Positions 582-24,969 of a DNA stretch of 25,778 nt are shown here, piece by piece; position 1 is the stretch's first letter; every line of letters starts with the position of its first letter. Source of the stretch: a virus (Duplodnaviria > Heunggongvirae > Uroviricota > Caudoviricetes); the IMG/VR virus record IMGVR_UViG_2718218136_000006, one strand, 5' to 3'. A program made the translations under genes and the position numbers. The notes below the pieces were generated by a model that made no database searches, had not been told where the DNA came from, and was given only the letters and a program-made list of their open reading frames with translations.

Positions 582-2039
582 TTAGGAGCGCCAAAAAAAA
601 CCTGAAAACAATATAATAACAGGATAAATTTCAAGGCGACCAAGAATCATAGCTATGCACATTAAGCATTTTGCAATGTCATTAAGCACTCCGAATGACG
701 ATGCAGTAGCCCCAAAACCTAATCCCATATTATTAATACATGCAGCCACTGTTGCAAATGATGTAAGAAAATCATATCCCATACCATTTAACACCAGTAT
801 AAAAAACACCGTGAAGAGAGTATAAAGAAAAAAGAAACTCCATACAGACCTCATTACACGATCTGTAACTATCTTCCCTCCTACATTTACACTCAACAAC
901 GCTCTGGGATGAGAAAGCTGATTTATCTCGTGTTTGCTTTGTTTGAAAAGTATAAGAAATCGAAGTGACTTAATTCCACCACAAGTTGAACCTATACATC
1001 CCCCAAAGAAACTTGACAACAGCAAAAACACTATCGTGTGCGTGGGCCAACTTGCATAATCCTGCGTAGCTAAACCATTATCAGTGAGCATGGAGCTGGC
1101 AAGAAAAAACGAATGAATAAAACTTCCATGCAAGTCATACATACCTATATGCCAGACCTGGAAAGAGGTAACAATGATCACCCCTAAGGCTATTAACAGA
1201 AAGAAACGAAGTTCAATATCTCTGATTAAAGGTTTTATCGTTTTTCTGCTAATAACAATATACCAAAGAGTAAAGTTGAAAGCCGATAGCAGGGAAAAAG
1301 CACCAGCCACCAGCTCAACCAAATAGTTATTAAAATATCCGATACTCTCGCTATGAGTTGAGAAACCACCAAGCGAAACTGTGGAAATCCCGTGACAAAT
1401 AGCATCAAACAAAGGCATTCCTGCAAGTCTATAACAGACAATACAAGCAATACCTAATAAAGAATAAGTTATCCACAGTGTCCGTGACGTATCGGCCAGG
1501 CGGGGAGTGAGTTTGTCATCCTTAAATGGCCCCGGCATTTCTGACTGATAAAGCTTTGCACCACCAATACCCAATAATGGCAATACTGCAACCGCCAGAA
1601 CAATAACTCCTAAACCACCTATAAAATTTAACTGTGACCGATAGTACAAATATGCCCGAGGTAATGAACTAACATCATCAATTACAGTTGCTCCTGTTGT
1701 TGTTATTCCAGAAACCCCTTCAAACAGAGCATCAATGAACGTTAAATTAAGTTCTGAGTCAATCCATAAAGGGAATGCACTAATAACAGAAAACAAAATC
1801 CAAAACATTACAATTATAATAAACCCATCACGGGTACGTAATTGAATGCCAGATTTCTTAGTTGTATACCACGCTCCGCCACCAATGCAAAAAAATATAA
1901 CGAAAGTTATAAAGAAAACGAACAGGCTTTTTTCTTTATAAAACAATGCTACAACCATTGGTGGCAACATTGAAAGACTATAGAGCCAAACCAGGAACCC
2001 ACACATATGAGTAACAACTCTTACATGAGATGTATTCAT
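582..2039 (-). CDS. trkG: TrkG potassium uptake membrane protein, 485 aa (prophage moron)
   Basis: ORF track 582..2057; start re-picked at ATG 2037-2039 (MNTSHVRV...); polytopic TrkH/TrkG-type sequence recalled as Rac-encoded TrkG. Confidence 0.9.
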   Translation of the reverse strand: MNTSHVRVVTHMCGFLVWLYSLSMLPPMVVALFYKEKSLFVFFITFVIFFCIGGGAWYTTKKSGIQLRTRDGFIIIVMFWILFSVISAFPLWIDSELNLTFIDALFEGVSGITTTGATVIDDVSSLPRAYLYYRSQLNFIGGLGVIVLAVAVLPLLGIGGAKLYQSEMPGPFKDDKLTPRLADTSRTLWITYSLLGIACIVCYRLAGMPLFDAICHGISTVSLGGFSTHSESIGYFNNYLVELVAGAFSLLSAFNFTLWYIVISRKTIKPLIRDIELRFFLLIALGVIIVTSFQVWHIGMYDLHGSFIHSFFLASSMLTDNGLATQDYASWPTHTIVFLLLSSFFGGCIGSTCGGIKSLRFLILFKQSKHEINQLSHPRALLSVNVGGKIVTDRVMRSVWSFFFLYTLFTVFFILVLNGMGYDFLTSFATVAACINNMGLGFGATASSFGVLNDIAKCLMCIAMILGRLEIYPVIILFSGFFWRS

Positions 2040-2176
2040 ATCTAAATATTCTTTCAATTATAACCACCTTGCTGCAATATTATGATTATACTGTATAAAA
2101 TTTAACTCCTCTTAGATCTTACTTCACTGTTCCTTATGAAACAATCATCAAAATGAATCATATTGTAGTTAAGATT

Positions 2177-2641
2177 TTACTTTAAACACTGTTCGGTTAT
2201 GTATTGCTGAGCACCTTCAAGTTGGGCCTGCATCATTACCAGTCGTTCCCGGAGGGTGAAATAATCCCGTTCAGCGGTGTCTGCCAGTCTGGGGGAGACT
2301 GCATTATCCACGCTGGAGGTGGCGGTGGCTTCACGCACTGACTGACAGACTGCTTTGATGCGCAACCGACGACGACCAGCGGCAACATCATCACGCAGAG
2401 CATCATTTTCAGCTTTCGCATCAGCTAACTCCTTCAGGTATTTTGCATCGAGTGCAGCAACATCACGCTGGCGTATCTGCATGTCAGTAATGATTGCGGT
2501 CGCCTGGTTGAGTTTTTCCGTCACATTATCGCGTTGCGCTTTGTAGGTAATGGCATTATCACGGTAATGATTAACAGCCCATGACAGGCAGACGATGATG
2601 CAGATAACCAGAGCATAAATAATCACGGCAACTCTGCTCAC
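2177..2641 (-). CDS. Rz-type i-spanin (inner-membrane spanin subunit)
   Basis: ORF track 2177..2656; N-terminal TM segment ([18 protein letters not shown]) then coiled-coil region, lambda Rz-like; likely GTG start 2639-2641 overlapping endolysin stop (GTGA). Confidence 0.8.
2236..2421 (-). CDS. Rz1-type o-spanin lipoprotein, embedded in +1 frame inside Rz
   Basis: 61-aa ORF with lipobox LVVVGC and proline-rich PPPPP stretch, fully nested in Rz, the classic Rz/Rz1 architecture. Confidence 0.8.
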
Positions 2642-3171
2642 TGCTCTATCCCCCAACAGGCTAATGCGCTCTCCTGATCACGACGAATAACCTGACCGTA
2701 ACAGTTATTTGAACGAAGGCGGCAATCGCGCCCCCTGTCCTTAATCCACCAGCGAATCGCCTCGCAGGCACCTTTACGATCACCTGCATTCAGCCGCTTA
2801 TAAAATGTCGACGGAAAACACTTAGCGGGGCCAATGTTATAGGGACAAAATGACGCGATACCCGCTTTTTGTGGTTCGGTCAGTGTTACTTTAATATTGC
2901 GATCCACCCATGCCAGCGCCTTATCACGCTCAATGGCATTAACCTGATCGCATTTTTCCTTCGTCAGTGTCATGCCCGGAATAACAGGTTTACCATCTAC
3001 TATCGTGGCACCGCGACAGATGGTCCATATGCCGGAACCATCGCGGTATGCCGTAGTGTGGTTACCCTCTTTTTCATCCAGAAACTGGTCAAGTATCTCA
3101 GGAGCAGATGCGCCTGCTCCAATCAGCGCCAGAACGGCCGCTGACAGGCCGTATTTGATTTTTGCGTTCAT
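2638..3171 (-). CDS. SAR endolysin (phage lysozyme, signal-anchor-release type), 177 aa
   Basis: ATG 3169-3171; N-terminal Gly/Ala-rich weakly hydrophobic segment ([17 protein letters not shown]) followed by E-x8-D-x5-T lysozyme catalytic spacing ([16 protein letters not shown]). Confidence 0.85.
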
Positions 3172-3276
3172 GGATATTTATCAGGATTTATCGGTTTCTG
3201 AACCCTGGATATGTTTATCTGCCCCGGCCTGTTGAATCAGGCGGGGAAAAGGTAAATACAATCAAGAGGATTATTT

Positions 3277-3549
3277 ATGGACAATAACACCATTTCTCTA
3301 CAGGAGTTGCTCGACTGCATTTCCAGGCTTCGGGATGATGTAAATGCCCTCACTGTTGCATTTTCATATCTGGCCTTATCAATTCCCAGAGAACAAATGC
3401 AACCAACACTGGCATCGCTCCTGCTTGAATCACGCAACCCCAAATGGTCCCAGGAACAACAAAATTCTTTTAAGTGGCTGGCGACATTACTGGAAGAAAA
3501 ATATGCTGGTAAAATTACCATTTCGGTGGAGTCTTCAGAAAATCAGTAA
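3277..3549 (+). CDS. hypothetical 90-aa protein, opposite strand to the lysis cassette
   Basis: ATG at 3277 preceded by AAGAGGA at about -9; ORF overlaps the 3' end of the YdfR-like gene convergently by 35 bp. No family recognised. Confidence 0.35.
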   Translation: MDNNTISLQELLDCISRLRDDVNALTVAFSYLALSIPREQMQPTLASLLLESRNPKWSQEQQNSFKWLATLLEEKYAGKITISVESSENQ

Positions 3550-3859
3550 TTCTTCCTGGTAGCTTTCCTTTGTAGGTTATCCACACATTCTGCGCCTCTA
3601 AAATTACGGGGCGCTTTTCCGGCGACTGCTCATCCCCTTCACATAACCCGGCAGCAACATCCAGGAAGACCTGTCTGATGCTCCTTCTGGCTGCAGCCTC
3701 ATAAAACTCCAGCGCAGCACCTTCAACACGGTCCAGCGAGATGTCCAGGTCAAAAATTTCACCGTCAAAGCGTTTTTTGTCTTGTAATGCTACAGTTACC
3801 GCAACTTTATTCTCAAAATTGCGGATCCCTTTCACAATCAGTTCATAGTCTTGGGTCAT
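3515..3859 (-). CDS. YdfR-like (DUF1327-type) prophage protein, 114 aa, between holin and endolysin
   Basis: ATG 3857-3859 with strong GAGGAGAG Shine-Dalgarno; N-terminus MTQDYELIVKGIRNFENKV... recalled as the YdfR family found at the same position in other lambdoid prophages. Confidence 0.55.
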   Translation of the reverse strand: MTQDYELIVKGIRNFENKVAVTVALQDKKRFDGEIFDLDISLDRVEGAALEFYEAAARRSIRQVFLDVAAGLCEGDEQSPEKRPVILEAQNVWITYKGKLPGRITDFLKTPPKW

Positions 3860-3863
3860 TATA

Positions 3864-4079
3864 TTACTCTCCTCTCGCAGCCTTTCTTCTGTCTTCTCTG
3901 ATTTTGAAGTACAGATTTGTCAGATAAGTCAAAAAGCCCAGAACCAGACTACCCAGCACACCGATTGCAGCCCACTGTGACGGAGTTACTCTATCGAGCA
4001 ACTGTAAAAACCAGTAGCCAGCACTGCCTGCGGAGGTGCCATAGGCGACACCCGTTGTTAACTTATCCATGGATTTCAT
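3864..4079 (-). CDS. pinholin (phage 21 S-type holin), 71 aa, dual-start MKSM
   Basis: ORF track 3864..4172 trimmed to ATG 4077-4079 (second Met at 4068-4070) behind GAGGTG; sequence ...[17 protein letters not shown]...[19 protein letters not shown] matches recalled S21 pinholin. Confidence 0.85.
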
Positions 4080-4467
4080 AACCCCCACCTCGCAGATGCG
4101 GGCGCTGTGTAATGGAAACAAAAAATGGCCACCAGCGGCCCGTAAAAAACACCCCGTCAAAAGCACCGGCATCCGCAGATGCCCTTTGCGTGGCGTTATT
4201 TGATGCGCGCCAGATGTGGCGCAAAGAAATGAAATAAGCCTTATCGAAAATTAAGGTTAATTTGATGATTTAAACCACTTCTGAAGCTTAGTAGTATGAA
4301 CATGTCCCCAGAAGGGGCCAATACTTATTATTCTTCATGGACTTTGTCCCGCGGTCTTAATCCGACGACCGCGCTACTTTTCACCCTCTCGCAAATTGCT
4401 ATCTAAAGGACGTTGTCCCACGAGTATTCCTGGATGCTCGTGTCTTTTTTTGTCCTGAGAAAGGAAT

Positions 4468-4490
4468 AAAAAAACCGCCAGATATGGCGG
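4468..4490 (-). terminator. candidate intrinsic terminator (minus strand) between tRNAs and holin
   Basis: Stem CCGCCA(4475-4480)/TGGCGG(4485-4490), 4-nt loop, followed on minus strand by a run of 7 T (4468-4474). Confidence 0.35.
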
Positions 4491-4856
4491 TTGGTCAATG
4501 CAAGGGATGAATTTTTTAATTGTTATTAAACCGAGGCGTCGGGTGCCTCCCGAAGTATTCCGTGCTGTATGGATACTGTGGTTTCCCGCTAAACCGACTC
4601 TTTAAACCACCCTCGCACTGAGGAGCACCTCTGTGGTGCGATTTACAACACCAGAATGATGCATCACCGACCCTGCCAGGAAATACAAAATCTCCACCGA
4701 TAATGCACCATTCTGCTGCCGTAAAAAAATCAGCACTGAGGCTACACCCGGCCTCAAATCATAGCCAGAGAACAGAATGCTTTTTCAAAACAACCTGCTC
4801 CCACGTAATAAAAAAATACGCCAGTGCCGTAATACAATAAGGCTTGTTTCAAATGC

Positions 4857-4931
<75 letters not shown>

Positions 4932-4934
4932 ATA

Positions 4935-5010
<76 letters not shown>

Positions 5011-5123
5011 ATTGGTTCTTCAGGGGAGCGATATCACCGATCAAAGAAGAGTTCCCCCTCAGAACCGTTTTCGATGATACGATTTAATATTCCAATCGCA
5101 ACAACAGTTTGCGTCAAGTTATG

Positions 5124-5204
5124 TAAATTTATTTATATGTTTTTATTTTATGTGAATAATTCACTTTCACTTAAAATATATACAACAACATATAAATAAA
5201 TTTA
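5124..5204. repeat. 17-bp perfect inverted repeat (TAAATTTATTTATATGT at 5124-5140; reverse complement at 5188-5204), 47-bp spacer
   Basis: Directly read; AT-rich intergenic DNA between the Q-proximal terminator and tRNA-Thr. Confidence 0.6.
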
Positions 5205-5249
5205 TTTTGAAGGCGATGATTAAATGTCGTTTCTGATATCACACCACAG

Positions 5250-5278
5250 AAACAACAAAACCCGCTCGATGGCGGGTT
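5250..5278 (-). terminator. intrinsic terminator downstream of the Q-like gene (tR'-like position)
   Basis: Stem AACCCGC(5259-5265)/GCGGGTT(5272-5278), loop TCGATG; on minus strand followed by TTGTTGTTTC. Confidence 0.5.
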
Positions 5279-5363
5279 CTATTAAAGTTTAATTGCGCTT
5301 GATTCGCCTCGCGATACAGCTTTGCGAAGCGTAGCAAAATTAAAGCAGTTTATGCGTAAAAAA

Positions 5364-5906
5364 TCAAGCCGTTTTTTGAGCGAATGATTCTCGCATGGGA
5401 ATGTATAGCGCATACTCAGCAACGGCCAACCAATTAGCAATTCGCTTTTCGCATGTGCTAAAACACCACTCTGGGTGTGCATCATTTAGCAATTCAGCCA
5501 TTTTGCGTTTGGTCATCCCCCGCCCCTCATACCGTTGCCGAAGGACGCTAATCAATCCTGGATGCTCTGCCAGCACCTCACTTATGACCCGATCAATACA
5601 TAACGCCTCTGCATCAGTACAATGTGCCAGCCAGCTCTTTTGCTTACCGTTAATCATATCCCGCAAAAAAGCCTCAAGTTCAGACTTGTTCAGACCTGCT
5701 TTTTTCATCCTCCGGAGCGCCTCGTTAATTGCCGTTTTTGTCAGCTTTTTAGAGGCCAACAACTGGTTGAACATATTCCCCGTCTTACCGCCGCCAATAT
5801 ACGACCAGCGCCCCCACATGCGCAGTTTTCCCTGAATCCAGACACTTTCCAGCGTGGTGAGACGAAGGTGTTCCCCGCTTTTGCCTATATTTGTTGGGTA
5901 AATCAT
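5364..5906 (-). CDS. putative late-gene antiterminator Q-like protein, about 180 aa
   Basis: ORF track 5364..6026 trimmed to ATG 5904-5906, which overlaps the upstream gene stop (ATGA); W-G-x-W motif (MWGRW) near N-terminus as in Q-family proteins; position immediately upstream of terminator, tRNAs and S-R-Rz. Confidence 0.5.
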   Translation of the reverse strand: MIYPTNIGKSGEHLRLTTLESVWIQGKLRMWGRWSYIGGGKTGNMFNQLLASKKLTKTAINEALRRMKKAGLNKSELEAFLRDMINGKQKSWLAHCTDAEALCIDRVISEVLAEHPGLISVLRQRYEGRGMTKRKMAELLNDAHPEWCFSTCEKRIANWLAVAEYALYIPMRESFAQKTA

Positions 5907-6193
5907 AAATAACCTTCCTTTCTCCAGATTTCTTGCGTGCGAAAAACACCTTCTGCATGCATCAGGCGTAATTCTTCTTTGGTGTAATCGCTTGTTTTTA
6001 CCCGCCAGTCGATTAGATCGTGGCATGAGCTACAGGCTATCGCCGCCTGCATATCGTGTGGTTTTGTCGCTGTTCCGCACGTCCCCGCCAGCCTGTAATG
6101 CGCCAGCACAGAGGTTTCGGGATTGTGATTGCAGTAGCCAGGGATTCTGATCTGGCACATCTGGCCTTTAGCCGCTTTACGTAAATTCACCAT
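5903..6193 (-). CDS. YbcO-like (DUF1364) nin-region protein, 96 aa
   Basis: Pattern LRKAAKG..CQIRIPGYCNHNPETSVLAH recalled from DLP12 YbcO; start ATG 6191-6193 overlaps upstream stop (TAATG). Confidence 0.6.
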   Translation of the reverse strand: MVNLRKAAKGQMCQIRIPGYCNHNPETSVLAHYRLAGTCGTATKPHDMQAAIACSSCHDLIDWRVKTSDYTKEELRLMHAEGVFRTQEIWRKEGYL

Positions 6194-6792
6194 TACGCAA
6201 ACTCCAGTAGTTGTGCGGCCACATTTTCAATTTCCTCCTGAGAGGAGAATTTACGGAACAGAATCCAGTTCCACAGCACATTCAGTACAGATTTATAAAC
6301 CTGCTGAAACTCGACTTCGTCCATATTCGCAAACGCGATGGATTTCGCCCGACGCCCACGGCTACCATCAGGATAAAAATGCTCTGTGTAAAATCCGGCC
6401 TGAATGGTTACCCACTCGCGGAAAGCCTCAAACGACTTTAGCAATGCCGTATCCCGGGTTCTGCGTGTCGCAACGGTATTCAGATATTGCTCTGCGGCAC
6501 CACTCAGGGCTGGAGTATGTTCCCGACCTACTGATTCGCACAGGTAATCAACGAAGCCTGATACCAGTTCTCGTTCTCGAGGCGTGATCGCCCCACCGAT
6601 CGGAGTCCAGTAATCGAATCCCAGTTGCAGGAGTTTGAAAAAACGCTTGTGGAATGCATAGTTACGCACACGCTTAAAGTCTGCGTGTATCCACTCGCCT
6701 ATTTTGATTTGATGCAGAAAATCGCAACTCTCCGGCGTCGCCGGGAGAAGTAAACCAGAAGAAGTTTGTTTGACCAGTTGTATATGCGCCAT
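6193..6792 (-). CDS. hypothetical nin-region protein, 199 aa
   Basis: ATG 6790-6792 with GGAG upstream; long ORF, co-oriented and coupled to the downstream gene. Family not recognised with confidence. Confidence 0.55.
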   Translation of the reverse strand: MAHIQLVKQTSSGLLLPATPESCDFLHQIKIGEWIHADFKRVRNYAFHKRFFKLLQLGFDYWTPIGGAITPRERELVSGFVDYLCESVGREHTPALSGAAEQYLNTVATRRTRDTALLKSFEAFREWVTIQAGFYTEHFYPDGSRGRRAKSIAFANMDEVEFQQVYKSVLNVLWNWILFRKFSSQEEIENVAAQLLEFA

Positions 6793-6863
6793 CGTAGTTC
6801 TCCGCTGGCGCAGTAGAATGGGTGTTCAGTCCGTTGTGCAGTATACCAGAATTAATACCAATA

Positions 6864-7076
6864 CTAACAGGATGCTCTGACTCGCAATTCATCCAGCAGT
6901 TTATCATTTCCCATAATGTCACTTAACCTCATCGGTAAAAAAATTGCCTTTCGCCCATTACGATACATCATTGATTTTTGGTTTTCAGGGAAGTAATCCA
7001 TTTCGACTATAACTGACAGGTCATCACGACGTATGACTGCGTATTTGCTACTAAATAGTTTCTTTATTTTTTCCAC
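6864..7076 (-). CDS. hypothetical small protein (about 70 aa from GTG 7074-7076; ORF track extends to 7115)
   Basis: GGAGG 4 nt upstream of an internal GTG; no ATG start available; left edge of the AT-rich island. Confidence 0.3.
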   Translation of the reverse strand: MEKIKKLFSSKYAVIRRDDLSVIVEMDYFPENQKSMMYRNGRKAIFLPMRLSDIMGNDKLLDELRVRASC

Positions 7077-7963
7077 GATGCCTCCAAGTTTATAAGTACA
7101 AGAGGTTATATCCACATAGAGACAAAAATATTAATCTTAAAAATATTTATTTCACGCCGTATATTTGTTTGTTTTATGCGCAGGCACAATGACTTTTATT
7201 TATTGTTATGCATATAATCAAATAAGTGATTGTTTTTTGCTCTTCAGATTCAGCAGGCAAAATGCATAAGGGCTGAAAGTTCTCGCATATAATACCTAAT
7301 TTACTATCACTATATTCTAAGCACTTACCAGGTGATTAGGAACGGAACCCAGTACCGTGCGAATTTTAATTATGTGCTGGGACCAAACGGTCTGAAATGT
7401 CTTCATTGGTGACGATGATTACTCTTACTTTTTGATTTTAATATTCCGGCAATAATTTTAATAAAAATCTGTTTTAACTCTGCATTTTGCTGATTCTCCG
7501 AAGAAACTATCCATCTCTACGAGGAGATCAAATGTCGTTTCAAATCAGTATGATGAGTATAAAAATCATGCCATAAATAGAAAACTAATTCGTCTGTATA
7601 GCAGTAATATTTCTGAAAATTAGTAGGATACTGTGGTAAAGAAATTCATTTCCAAGTAATTGGTAAACGCATTTGATTTGATTTTTTGTATGGGCTGTAC
7701 TGGCTAAATAACATCCGATACTTGCCAGCACTAGCGATTGCTATTGATGAGAACAATAGTGGCATCCGGCAAAGCATTTTGTAGGGGGGTATCAAGCGGT
7801 GCTAACGCATTGCGGTAAAAATTCTGTCACACTTGGCGAGCAGGCATAGAGATGATCTCATTGAATTGGTTGCAATCACAAAACACTATGCCTGCCTTTT
7901 CTATTCGCCCATTGCTGGGGAGTCCACAGCACTACTGCAGCTTTTTAGTACGATGAACAGCTA

Positions 7964-8087: not shown

Positions 8088-9416
8088 CTGAGAGATCCCC
8101 TCATAATTTCCCCAAAGCGTAACCATGTGTGAATAAATTTTGAGCTAGTAGGGTTGCAGCCACGAGTAAGTCTTCCCTTGTTATTGTGTAGCCAGAATGC
8201 CGCAAAACTTCCATGCCTAAGCGAACTGTTGAGAGTACGTTTCGATTTCTGACTGTGTTAGCCTGGAAGTGCTTGTCCCAACCTTGTTTCTGAGCATGAA
8301 CGCCCGCAAGCCAACATGTTAGTTGAAGCATCAGGGCGATTAGCAGCATGATATCAAAACGCTCTGAGCTGCTCGTTCGGCTATGGCGTAGGCCTAGTCC
8401 GTAGGCAGGACTTTTCAAGTCTCGGAAGGTTTCTTCAATCTGCATTCGCTTCGAATAGATATTAACAAGTTGTTTGGGTGTTCGAATTTCAACAGGTAAG
8501 TTAGTTGCTAGAACCCATGGCTCCTTTGCCGACGCTGAGTAGATTTTAGGTGACGGGTGGTGACAATGAGTCCGTGTCGAGCGCTGATTTTTTCGGCCTT
8601 TAGAGCGAGATTTATACAATAGAATTTGGCATGAGATTGGATTGCTTTTAGTCAGCCTCTTATAGCCTAAAGTCTTTGAGTGACTAGATGACATATCATG
8701 TAAGTTGCTGATAGGTTTCCAGTTTTCCGCTCCTAGGTCTGCATATTGTACTTTTCCTCTTACTCGACTTAACCAGTACCAACCCAGCTTCTCAACGGAT
8801 TTATACCATGGCACTTTAAAGCCAGCATCACTGACAATGAGCGGTGTGGTGTTACTCGGTAGAATGCTCGCAAGGTCGGCTAGAAATTGGTCATGAGCTT
8901 TCTTTGAACATTGCTCTGAAAGCGGGAACGCTTTCTCATAAAGAGTAACAGAACGACCGTGTAGTGCGACTGAAGCTCGCAATACCATAAGTCGTTTTTG
9001 CTCACGAATATCAGACCAGTCAACAAGTACAATGGGCATCGTATTGCCCGAACAGATAAAGCTAGCATGCCAACGGTATACAGCGAGTCGCTCTTTGTGG
9101 AGGTGACGATTACCTAACAATCGGTCGATTCGTTTGATGTTATGTTTTGTTCTCGCTTTGGTTGGCAGGTTACGGCCAAGTTCGGTAAGAGTGAGAGTTT
9201 TACAGTCAAGTAATGCGTGGCAAGCCAACGTTAAGCTGTTGAGTCGTTTTAAGTGTAATTCGGGGCAGAATTGGTAAAGAGAGTCGTGTAAAATATCGAG
9301 TTCGCACATCTTGTTGTCTGATTATTGATTTTTCGCGAAACCATTTGATCATATGACAAGATGTGTATCTACCTTAACTTAATGATTTTGATAAAAATCA
9401 TTAGGGGATTCATCAG
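8088..9416 (-). mobile_element. IS10 copy 1 (1329 bp), flanked by 9-bp direct duplication CGCTTTGCA (8079-8087 and 9417-9425)
   Basis: Ends CTGAGAGATCCCCTCATAATTTCCCC (inside end) and ...TCATTAGGGGATTCATCAG (outside end) recalled as IS10 termini; exact 9-bp flanking repeat read from sequence. Confidence 0.95.
8101..9309 (-). CDS. IS10 transposase, 402 aa
   Basis: ORF track; protein MCELDILHDSLYQFCPELHLKRLNSL... recalled as the IS10/Tn10 transposase. Confidence 0.95.
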   Translation of the reverse strand: MCELDILHDSLYQFCPELHLKRLNSLTLACHALLDCKTLTLTELGRNLPTKARTKHNIKRIDRLLGNRHLHKERLAVYRWHASFICSGNTMPIVLVDWSDIREQKRLMVLRASVALHGRSVTLYEKAFPLSEQCSKKAHDQFLADLASILPSNTTPLIVSDAGFKVPWYKSVEKLGWYWLSRVRGKVQYADLGAENWKPISNLHDMSSSHSKTLGYKRLTKSNPISCQILLYKSRSKGRKNQRSTRTHCHHPSPKIYSASAKEPWVLATNLPVEIRTPKQLVNIYSKRMQIEETFRDLKSPAYGLGLRHSRTSSSERFDIMLLIALMLQLTCWLAGVHAQKQGWDKHFQANTVRNRNVLSTVRLGMEVLRHSGYTITREDLLVAATLLAQNLFTHGYALGKL

Positions 9417-22512: not shown

Positions 22513-22707
22513 ATGAGATATGACAATGTTAAACCATGTCCATTTTGTGGTTGTCCATCAGTAACGGTGAAAGTCATTTCAGGATATTACCGAGCGAAGT
22601 GTAACGGATGCGAATCCCGAACCGGTTATGGTGGAAGTGAAAGAGAAGCACTCGAAAGATGGAATAAACGAACCACTGGAAATAATAACGGAGGTGTTCA
22701 TGTATAA
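22513..22707 (+). CDS. ralR: RalR (Lar) restriction-alleviation protein, 64 aa
   Basis: ORF track 22474..22707 trimmed to ATG 22513 (MRYDNVKPCPFCGC...); Cys-rich zinc-ribbon-like pattern. Confidence 0.8.
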   Translation: MRYDNVKPCPFCGCPSVTVKVISGYYRAKCNGCESRTGYGGSEREALERWNKRTTGNNNGGVHV

Positions 22708-22888
22708 AATTACCGCTACTATTGAAAAGGAAGGTGGCACTCCTACTAACTGGACAAGATATTCAAAATCTAAACTAACGAAATCAGAATGCGAAAAAAT
22801 GCTCTCAGGTAAAAAAGAAGCAGGCGTTTCCAGAGAGCAGAAAGTAAAACTGATAAATTTTAATTGCGAGAAACTTCAGTCCTCGTGA
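22700..22888 (+). CDS. ydaC: YdaC, 62 aa
   Basis: ATG 22700 behind GGAGG, overlapping ralR end by 8 nt; ORF track 22628..22888. Confidence 0.65.
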   Translation: MYKITATIEKEGGTPTNWTRYSKSKLTKSECEKMLSGKKEAGVSREQKVKLINFNCEKLQSS

Positions 22889-23640: not shown

Positions 23641-24969
23641 CTGAGAGATCCCCTCATAATTTCCCCAAAGCGTAACCATGTGTGAATAAATTTTGAGCTA
23701 GTAGGGTTGCAGCCACGAGTAAGTCTTCCCTTGTTATTGTGTAGCCAGAATGCCGCAAAACTTCCATGCCTAAGCGAACTGTTGAGAGTACGTTTCGATT
23801 TCTGACTGTGTTAGCCTGGAAGTGCTTGTCCCAACCTTGTTTCTGAGCATGAACGCCCGCAAGCCAACATGTTAGTTGAAGCATCAGGGCGATTAGCAGC
23901 ATGATATCAAAACGCTCTGAGCTGCTCGTTCGGCTATGGCGTAGGCCTAGTCCGTAGGCAGGACTTTTCAAGTCTCGGAAGGTTTCTTCAATCTGCATTC
24001 GCTTCGAATAGATATTAACAAGTTGTTTGGGTGTTCGAATTTCAACAGGTAAGTTAGTTGCTAGAACCCATGGCTCCTTTGCCGACGCTGAGTAGATTTT
24101 AGGTGACGGGTGGTGACAATGAGTCCGTGTCGAGCGCTGATTTTTTCGGCCTTTAGAGCGAGATTTATACAATAGAATTTGGCATGAGATTGGATTGCTT
24201 TTAGTCAGCCTCTTATAGCCTAAAGTCTTTGAGTGACTAGATGACATATCATGTAAGTTGCTGATAGGTTTCCAGTTTTCCGCTCCTAGGTCTGCATATT
24301 GTACTTTTCCTCTTACTCGACTTAACCAGTACCAACCCAGCTTCTCAACGGATTTATACCATGGCACTTTAAAGCCAGCATCACTGACAATGAGCGGTGT
24401 GGTGTTACTCGGTAGAATGCTCGCAAGGTCGGCTAGAAATTGGTCATGAGCTTTCTTTGAACATTGCTCTGAAAGCGGGAACGCTTTCTCATAAAGAGTA
24501 ACAGAACGACCGTGTAGTGCGACTGAAGCTCGCAATACCATAAGTCGTTTTTGCTCACGAATATCAGACCAGTCAACAAGTACAATGGGCATCGTATTGC
24601 CCGAACAGATAAAGCTAGCATGCCAACGGTATACAGCGAGTCGCTCTTTGTGGAGGTGACGATTACCTAACAATCGGTCGATTCGTTTGATGTTATGTTT
24701 TGTTCTCGCTTTGGTTGGCAGGTTACGGCCAAGTTCGGTAAGAGTGAGAGTTTTACAGTCAAGTAATGCGTGGCAAGCCAACGTTAAGCTGTTGAGTCGT
24801 TTTAAGTGTAATTCGGGGCAGAATTGGTAAAGAGAGTCGTGTAAAATATCGAGTTCGCACATCTTGTTGTCTGATTATTGATTTTTCGCGAAACCATTTG
24901 ATCATATGACAAGATGTGTATCTACCTTAACTTAATGATTTTGATAAAAATCATTAGGGGATTCATCAG
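23641..24969 (-). mobile_element. IS10 copy 2 (1329 bp), flanked by 9-bp direct duplication CGCTTTACC (23632-23640 and 24970-24978)
   Basis: Same termini as copy 1; 9-bp flanking repeat read from sequence; same orientation as copy 1. Confidence 0.95.
23654..24862 (-). CDS. IS10 transposase, 402 aa
   Basis: ORF track; protein identical to the copy-1 transposase. Confidence 0.95.
   Translation of the reverse strand: MCELDILHDSLYQFCPELHLKRLNSLTLACHALLDCKTLTLTELGRNLPTKARTKHNIKRIDRLLGNRHLHKERLAVYRWHASFICSGNTMPIVLVDWSDIREQKRLMVLRASVALHGRSVTLYEKAFPLSEQCSKKAHDQFLADLASILPSNTTPLIVSDAGFKVPWYKSVEKLGWYWLSRVRGKVQYADLGAENWKPISNLHDMSSSHSKTLGYKRLTKSNPISCQILLYKSRSKGRKNQRSTRTHCHHPSPKIYSASAKEPWVLATNLPVEIRTPKQLVNIYSKRMQIEETFRDLKSPAYGLGLRHSRTSSSERFDIMLLIALMLQLTCWLAGVHAQKQGWDKHFQANTVRNRNVLSTVRLGMEVLRHSGYTITREDLLVAATLLAQNLFTHGYALGKL

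Follow-up and report, generated by a model that had tools for sequence, protein, structure and literature searches.

A predicted late-gene switch of the phage 21 Q type behind a DUF1133 gene in a Rac-like prophage of Escherichia coli

Late-gene control by Q has been described in molecular detail for phage 21, where TGAGCA, directly repeated in the spacer from -35 to -10, forms the Q-binding element. Its bases are read by A124, R127 and R128 in the second helix of the protein (PMC6606751), with R127 and R128 reading TGAGCA (PMC6606751; Shi et al.). A second, less familiar system is found in Gifsy-1, where the isrK promoter gives rise to a short terminated RNA as well as to a read-through transcript, and where the gene just upstream encodes AntQ, a Q-like protein. 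Expression of AntQ arrests growth, and cells are rescued by co-expression of Rho or RNase H (PMC4825925). Furthermore, DUF1133 proteins have been noted as Q-like by HHpred in 13 Shiga toxin (Stx) phages (PMC8136144). Here, we describe a DUF1133 gene and the DNA directly behind it in a stretch of 25,778 nucleotides (nt; IMG/VR record IMGVR_UViG_2718218136_000006), which we refer to as the window. The window is a defective lambdoid prophage of Rac-like type from Escherichia coli, with IS10 insertions, and its late genes lie on the minus strand. It very probably carries a classic Q late-gene switch, that is, a Q gene followed by its own promoter and by a terminator placed before the lysis genes.

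The DUF1133 protein and its relation to phage 21 Q

The gene in question is an intact open reading frame (ORF) of 180 amino acids (aa; 5364..5906, minus strand), the ATG of which, at 5906, overlaps the stop codon of the YbcO-like gene upstream. Its product matches Pfam family PF06576 (DUF1133) with an E value of 2.6e-107 (356.3 bits; residues 1-175 against positions 1-175 of the 176 in the model), and the identical protein is named 'DUF1133 family protein' in RefSeq. In PHROGs it matches phrog_753, 'anti-termination protein Q-like', and in Pfam it also reaches PF06530 (Phage_antitermQ), if marginally, with 27.1 bits against a cut-off of 26 (E 4.1e-06, residues 69-140). Neither the lambda Q family (PF03589) nor the 82 Q family (PF06323) appeared in the Pfam scan of the protein at E <= 0.01. 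A single-sequence search of the PDB found phage 21 Q (Q21) at an E value of 0.28 only, whereas a family profile built from 44 diverse DUF1133 members found the Q21 chains 6p18_P and 6jnx_P at 9.3e-10, with chain residues 9-44 and 46-153 covered; the homology extends to the N-terminal W-x2-G-x-L-x2-WG-x-W helix. An AlphaFold model of the protein (predicted local distance difference test score, pLDDT, 75.4; predicted template modelling score, pTM, 0.68) was compared with known structures by Foldseek. Ranks 1 to 11 are all Q21 chains, at a probability of 1.00 and with target-normalised template modelling (TM) scores of 0.63-0.73, and the next match has an E value of 2.1. Pfam, profile-to-PDB comparison and predicted fold all assign this protein of 180 aa to the phage 21 Q superfamily, in which it is a divergent member. 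A model that read only the letters of this DNA (hereafter the sequence-only reading) had called the gene a Q-like antiterminator, and this assignment stands; no match to a non-antiterminator family arose in the family and fold searches.

The placement of the gene is that of a Q gene as well. It lies between nin-region genes and a lysis cassette, and the same placement is seen in phages of Escherichia, Klebsiella, Providencia and Edwardsiella. Enterobacterial-type DUF1133 genes also occur on contigs labelled Candidatus Nanosynbacter (L014, 94% identity) and Vagococcus (L022, 55%), which probably reflect contamination or misbinning and not a real host range.

How does this family relate to AntQ? 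In two relatives, one from E. coli (L010) and one from Salmonella (L013), a DUF1133 gene is directly followed by an Rfam isrK match (75.6 and 67.1 bits, respectively), just as AntQ directly precedes isrK in Gifsy-1, and AntQ-type proteins are therefore DUF1133 members. Indirect experimental support for processive antitermination is confined, within the family, to Gifsy-1 AntQ (PMC4825925). In both relatives (3075-3276 in L010, 3088-3268 in L013), isrK, which overlaps a match to the c4-a1b1 target, comes after the Q gene and precedes a match to the C4 antisense RNA, an array that corresponds to a P1 immI-like antirepressor control module behind the Q terminator.

Terminator, predicted late promoter and -10-like hexamer

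Behind the Q gene, in the position of tR', lies a predicted intrinsic terminator on the minus strand, with a stem at 5284-5253 and a U-rich tail that runs to about 5250. The stem reads TAATAGAACCCGCCATCGAGCGGGTTTTGTTG and is followed by TTTCTG; its core is formed by GAACCCGCC and GGCGGGUUU, and its tail is UUUUGUUGUUU. The hairpin begins 80 nt, and its G+C core 86 nt, past the last base of the Q stop codon. With 13 pairs it is the longest of eight terminator-like sites found in a scan of 4100-7200, for which shuffled sequences gave 3.4 +/- 1.8 sites. Folded as RNA, the 41-nt terminator piece reaches -17.4 kcal/mol against -5.96 +/- 2.19 for its shuffled counterparts (z -5.2), none out of 200 being as good.

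The hairpin recurs among relatives. For comparison, 52 related loci, hereafter the first set, were assembled from phage records and from one genome per species. Among those with a full-length Q gene, a terminator-like hairpin is located 23-113 nt past the stop codon in 42 of 45, and at 42-113 nt in 41. This distance varies only through the tail of the protein, and the sequences align when they are anchored on the terminator. In independent viral loci with a located module, the hairpin begins 39-53 nt past a conserved hexamer, TAnGCT, in 62 of 63 cases. Moreover, five of the ten stem pairs show pair-keeping changes on both sides in an alignment of 19 sequences. Judged by such comparisons, the terminator is more than a chance hairpin, and it is conserved; it probably also ends the early transcript. 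The sequence-only reading had placed a strong terminator about 90 bp downstream of the Q-like gene, with a GC stem and U-tract on the late-gene strand and ahead of the tRNA genes and the holin. This description is borne out in each of its parts, since the late strand is the minus strand and tRNA-Thr, tRNA-Gly and then a P21-type holin follow on it. Its proposal of a tR'-like arrangement gains support from the Q21 homology, the isrK-followed relative L010, the nin-to-lysis position and the conservation of the terminator, the activity of which is predicted from sequence.

Where the late promoter might be had been left unlocated. On the basis of conserved geometry, we predict it within the 80 nt that separate the gene from the terminator, with the Q stop codon inside its -35 element. 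This element, TTGATT (5367-5362, minus strand), includes the stop TGA at 5366-5364. Every module-bearing locus has a TTGnnn whose distance from TAnGCT is fixed at 34-35 nt, be the DNA coding or non-coding, and in the aligned loci this hexamer includes or adjoins the Q stop codon. A candidate -10 hexamer, TTTAAT, can be read from the sequence at 5344-5339 (minus strand) with a spacer of 17 nt. Its counterparts in relatives are TATAGT, TAATAT, TAGTAT or TATATT, found 16-18 nt past the -35 and offset by 1-2 nt from the position of TTTAAT. In a Providencia phage (L004) and in L010, no promoter match in the region is better than the one at the Q stop, TTGACT-16-TATAGT and TTGACT-18-TATATT, respectively, each scoring 10 of 12. 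In L010, a close relative, the Rfam isrK match begins 7 nt past that -10, such that the geometry of the promoter fits the 5' end of an RNA already known.

The third element is TACGCT (5333-5328, minus strand), a -10-like hexamer offset by 34 nt relative to the first base of the -35. Its conservation and fixed offset, taken together with the lambda and phage 21 paradigm, make it a candidate sigma-dependent pause element. Among 19 window-type leaders from proteins 31-95% identical, T1, A2, G4 and C5 of TAnGCT are invariant, and T6 is kept in at least 90%. A -10 element depends most on T1, A2 and T6. The offset from the -35 is 34 or 35 in 63 of 70 viral test loci and, within the first set, in all 39 module-bearing loci that are not of the isrK type. 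We predict a transcription start near 5332, and with a release point at about 5254-5250 the terminated RNA would measure about 70-83 nt.

It is conceivable that the hairpin serves only as the operon-end terminator of the early DUF1367-YbcO-Q transcript and that the late promoter is located elsewhere, for example in the A+T-rich DNA at 5080-5250 ahead of the tRNA genes. The poor -10 of the proposed promoter in the window variant would fit such an arrangement, as would a promoter-like TTGCGA-16-TATCAT upstream of tRNA-Thr (5101-5074), although promoter-like sites in the region are no commoner than in shuffles (5 versus 5.3). Against it, the -35 at the stop codon, TAnGCT and the terminator keep their spacing down to 31% protein identity, whether the DNA is coding or non-coding, and the best promoter match of relatives is found at the Q stop, with the Rfam isrK match starting just after it. 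Ending the early transcript is, in addition, compatible with a tR' role, as it is for tR' in lambda. We consider a hairpin confined to the early transcript quite improbable.

Predicted recognition helix and candidate Q-binding octamer

If the DUF1133 protein acts as a Q, then what might it bind? Its predicted DNA-recognition helix, S150-T-C-E153-K154-R155 (codons at 5442..5459, minus strand), aligns in the profile comparison with A124-T125-C126-R127-R128-E129 of phage 21 Q. On the DNA side, the octamer TTACGCAT (5359-5352, minus strand), which occupies offsets 8-15 counted from the first base of the -35, is the candidate binding element. Across the first set and two viral sets, this octamer co-varies without exception with the class of the helix. 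Offsets 17-21 hold AAA(C/G)T in every class, and this stretch does not vary with the helix. In the first set, five helix classes correspond one-to-one to five octamer classes: xTCRRR to TGAGC(C/A), RTCE(S/T/N)R to TTGCGCG(G/C), STCEKR, the class of the window, to TTACG(C/T)(A/G)(T/C), RT(Y/H/C)Q(D/N)R to (T/C)TT(A/G)CCGA, and RTCCSR, the isrK type, to ATCTGTTA or ATTACTAA.

We re-tested the pairing on viral contigs outside the set from which it had been derived, counting loci in which the module was found. xT(C/Y)RRR came with TGA(G/A)C(C/A) in 44 of 45 loci, the exception being AGAGCC; RTCESR came with TTGCGCGG (6/6) and RTYQDR with TTT(A/G)CCGA (10/10). Two further classes emerged, RTCQRR with TTGACATT and STCQRR with TGACCTAA. 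All 80 viral loci of the window class carried TTACG(C/T)(A/G)(T/C). A search seeded with the Edwardsiella homologue yielded four proteins only. The composite pattern TTACGYRY-N17-19-TANGCT is present once in the window, against 0 expected, and among the fetched loci it follows only Q genes of the STCEKR class. The pairing of RRR with TGAGC, moreover, is seen in three settings, namely phage 21, enterobacterial 192-aa proteins and Xenorhabdus proteins; over residues 1-145, the last are 38-45% identical to the enterobacterial RRR proteins and 60-62% identical to a neighbour of another class. It is also kept where the spacer is non-coding. Because the octamer co-varies with the residues aligned to the DNA-reading residues of 21 Q, TTACGCAT is likely the Q-binding element.

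A comparison can be made with the E. coli/Shigella protein of L010. The two proteins are 95% identical over residues 1-145 and match as far as '...HPEWCF'; from there on the recognition helix, C-terminus, promoter, leader and terminator all diverge. The recombination breakpoint falls just before the helix codons, at 5442-5470 in the window (minus strand; about residue 149). Since the divergence runs from the helix through the terminator, helix and target appear to travel as one module.

How might the cassette work? In the reading that the evidence supports best, a sigma-70 promoter beginning at the Q stop codon (-35 TTGATT, weak -10 TTTAAT) would initiate transcription near 5332. Without Q, polymerase would halt at the hairpin and U-tract (5284-5250) and release an RNA of roughly 80 nt. 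With Q, polymerase still holding sigma would pause at TACGCT (5333-5328), and Q, bound to TTACGCAT through its C-terminal recognition helix (S150, E153, K154), would load onto the paused polymerase, where it would narrow the RNA exit channel, as in phage 21, such that terminator hairpins could not form. Read-through would then pass the tR'-like terminator, the two tRNA genes and a further terminator at 4492-4473 to reach the genes for holin, endolysin and spanin, trkG and beyond.

Alternatively, the protein may be a sigma-region-4-like activator instead of a processive antiterminator. From the octamer, which lies some 18 bp upstream of TACGCT, the bound protein would replace the -35 contact, TACGCT would serve as the -10, and the terminator would be an attenuator or simply the end of an RNA. 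The Q21 fold is indeed sigma-region-4-like, the octamer and TAnGCT are separated by 18-20 bp, which resembles a -35/-10 spacing, TGC precedes TACGCT as in an extended -10, and the upstream -10 is weak in the window class. The same spacing, however, is needed by a Q-loading complex, in which sigma region 2 sits on a -10-like hexamer, and the homology to Q21 spans the N-terminal helix as well. The classes from Providencia, Xenorhabdus and Edwardsiella have a near-consensus upstream promoter and thus need no activator, a terminator 40-50 nt past the hexamer in nearly every locus fits antitermination and not activation, and the phenotypes of AntQ point to interference with termination (PMC4825925). 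We accordingly give an activator of this kind little probability.

The leader itself was also considered as a functional RNA. An 84-nt transcript from 5333 to 5250 is predicted to fold into a 5' hairpin (CGCUUCGC...GCGAGGCG; 5305..5331, minus strand) and the terminator, at -30.1 kcal/mol (z -3.4). We rejected this leader hairpin as a family requirement: RNAalifold leaves only a 3-bp helix plus the terminator, and single-sequence folds, which produce the hairpin in many relatives, do not do so in L019, L038, L033, L039, L035 and L037. At gathering thresholds, Rfam has no match at the Q-terminator locus. Candidates from a permissive search were discarded, with isrK (RF01394; 5255-5330, minus strand) at 13.3 bits against a gathering score of 50 and the best match, STnc370 (RF02064; 5249-5315, minus strand), at 27.9 against 54. 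The likeness to STnc370 is mostly terminator plus GCGAAUCAA, and no related locus reaches the threshold of that family; amino-acid leaders, too, match through the terminator and stay below threshold. That the main product is the short terminated RNA, acting as a regulatory small RNA (sRNA) like IsrK of Gifsy-1 with read-through as a side effect, is very improbable: the equivalent Gifsy-1 RNA does act in trans on its own read-through transcript (PMC4825925) and the predicted 84-nt RNA folds well, but the window leader falls below both the isrK and STnc370 thresholds, the orf45-anrP target and c4-like RNA found behind isrK in L010 and L013 are absent here, with tRNA genes in their stead, the leader hairpin is not conserved, the conserved part being a DNA-level block beside the promoter, and an sRNA role would in any case be compatible with antitermination.

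Several observations weigh against a Q switch of the phage 21 kind at this locus. The weakest element of the cassette is the -10, which in the window class (TTTAAT; TTCAAT in relatives) lacks an A at the second position. The sequence-only reading had suggested promoter and terminator prediction on the minus strand as a check, and its outcome was divided: the terminator at 5284..5253 was recovered, but the consensus scan listed no promoter at TTGATT/TTTAAT, because of the missing A in the -10, and the -35 was located by conservation instead. Alternatively, TGC-TACGCT might be used as an extended -10, with a start near 5321, about 11 nt further down; under either model, the start is between the Q gene and the terminator. 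Helix and octamer are linked neighbours about 100 nt apart, and relatedness and linkage inflate the counts of their co-variation. The octamer has no evident partner repeat at a distance of 8 bp, where a second subsite was sought on the model of phage 21, which has two. As for the protein, the profile alignment shows DUF1133 to be without 12 residues of the minor-groove loop, opposite 'PRKMLCRGGGRIQ' of Q21, with just 'HPEW' between the two DNA-binding helices of the window protein, and an insertion of about 32 residues (about residues 41-86, pLDDT about 58-66) follows the first helix, at the ring-forming elements of Q21. Given this deletion and insertion, the details of loading may differ from those of Q21. 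Finally, the prophage is defective and carries IS10 insertions.

Nevertheless, a Q late-gene switch is what would be expected at this place, and for the window itself it confirms the annotation of DUF1133 as Q-like already suggested by PHROGs and by one survey of Stx phages. The comparison further provides a map of promoter, candidate octamer, candidate pause hexamer and terminator for a branch of Q proteins. We lean, with some reserve, towards a broader proposal, namely that DUF1133 constitutes a distinct and widespread Q21 branch in Enterobacterales, which recognises a single 8-bp target abutting the -35 of a stop-overlapping promoter, reads it by three helix positions, and has diversified into at least seven helix-octamer classes: STCEKR/TTACGCAT, TCRRR/TGAGC, TCESR/TTGCGCGG, TYQDR/TTTGCCGA, TCCSR/ATCTGTTA, RTCQRR/TTGACATT and STCQRR/TGACCTAA. 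Helix, promoter, leader and terminator would be exchanged together by recombination just upstream of the helix codons. If this is true, then the family holds a natural and readable specificity code for orthogonal antiterminators, and matched protein-DNA pairs could serve as orthogonal antitermination parts. A corollary is that the Salmonella sRNA IsrK would be recast as the pR'-tR' transcript of the DUF1133 family, linking it to the classic transcript of that name.

Prophage setting and comparison with known systems

Eleven complete E. coli genomes contain the region 4100-7200 with 100% identity. In strain EC12, RefSeq annotation places the identical region between trkG/ynaK and the early region with ydaT/ydaF/sieB. 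A full-length match to the RalA antitoxin sRNA (Rfam, 220.6 bits; 22706-22884, minus strand) shows the element to be of Rac type. Two IS10 copies (8078-~9400 and 23631-~24950) point the same way; each with an RNA-OUT match (Rfam; 9302-9371 and 24855-24924), they are 15,553 bp apart and bracket most of the early region of the prophage in the manner of a composite transposon. The prophage of EC12, otherwise identical, has no IS10 annotated at these places. The first copy adjoins the 3' end of an ATP-binding protein gene, the product of which has 623 aa here and 660 aa in EC12.

The order of genes at the locus is DUF1367, YbcO, Q, tRNAs, holin, lysozyme and Rz. The two upstream genes of the Q operon, DUF1367 (6792..6193, minus strand) and YbcO/DUF1364 (6193..5903, minus strand), were assigned by Pfam and RefSeq and have overlapping start and stop codons; the order DUF1367-YbcO-Q is also found in Gifsy-type and Rac-type phages. 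The first genes past the terminator are tRNA-Thr(TGT) (4935-5010) and tRNA-Gly(TCC) (4857-4931), both on the minus strand (ARAGORN; Rfam tRNA 73.8 and 65.6 bits). In the relative Rac-SA53 (L002), the slot that this tRNA pair occupies directly after the tR'-like terminator holds eplBA, toxin genes of pertussis-like type. The slot after tR' carries tRNAs and toxin genes in Stx phages such as 933W. Because toxin genes occupy the slot behind the terminator in relatives (eplBA in Rac-SA53), control of read-through is relevant to virulence gene expression.

Between the tRNA genes and the holin, some 780 nt are without credible ORFs. They include a second strong terminator-like hairpin, AACCGCCATATCTGGCGGTT and TTTTTATT (4473..4492, minus strand; terminator scan), which faces a plus-strand terminator-like site at 4419-4442. 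A remnant of a phage-21-type pR' was looked for upstream of the P21-type holin, and 4080-4860 matched two phage records only, with no Q21-type context. The lysis cassette (2177..4172, minus strand) encodes a P21-type holin, a YdfR-like protein, a lysozyme and an Rz spanin (PF04971, PF07041, PF00959 and PF03245; PHROGs; RefSeq of EC12), the holin being the ORF at 3864..4172 (minus strand), which RefSeq annotates in a 71-aa form. A 94-aa ORF between the YdfR-like and lysozyme genes (3237-3521, minus strand) has no Pfam or PHROG match, and at its position in EC12, RefSeq gives a 90-aa hypothetical protein on the opposite strand. Directly after the Rz gene, within the late operon, is trkG (582-2057, minus strand). 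In phage vB_EcoS-683R6 (L053), ParB-like and terminase genes come after trkG, which therefore behaves as a moron carried in late transcription.

How, then, does the locus compare with the systems described? The proposed layout is that of lambda and of Stx phages such as 933W, with Q, a late promoter, a short terminated RNA, a terminator (pR', 6S RNA and tR' in lambda) and then lysis genes; tRNA genes directly after tR' are likewise found in 933W, whereas the window has no toxin gene in that slot. Lambda Q (PF03589) and 82 Q (PF06323) are, however, unrelated to the window protein in sequence, and neither has a Pfam match in it. The terminated RNA of lambda is 194 nt long, compared with the about 70-83 nt predicted here.

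With AntQ and IsrK (RF01394), the window has the protein family and the upstream genes in common; the predicted -35 likewise holds the stop codon, and a short terminated RNA is predicted to follow directly. From about residue 149 on, the window differs in its recognition helix, promoter spacer, leader and terminator; its RNA is not isrK, and there is neither orf45-anrP nor a c4-like RNA downstream. The IsrK study, moreover, treats the RNA as a riboregulator and not as a substrate of AntQ (PMC4825925).

From the phage 21 cassette (PF06530; PDB 6P18, 6P19 and 6JNX), the DUF1133 system departs in sequence, with 14-17% identity in fold alignments, in the 12-residue loop deletion and the insertion of about 32 residues, and in having one visible octamer abutting the -35 in place of two 6-bp direct repeats. 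The window, for its part, has the helix STCEKR, the octamer TTACGCAT and a very short predicted terminated RNA. Yet the protein and its fold are homologous, and the gene lies just before the predicted late promoter. A candidate specificity element between the predicted -35 and -10 and a -10-like hexamer at the predicted start of the transcript would correspond to those of phage 21, and an intrinsic terminator likewise precedes the lysis genes. Recognition-helix positions can be aligned between the two proteins, and TGAGC, the motif that 21 Q reads, is the partner of the RRR class of DUF1133.

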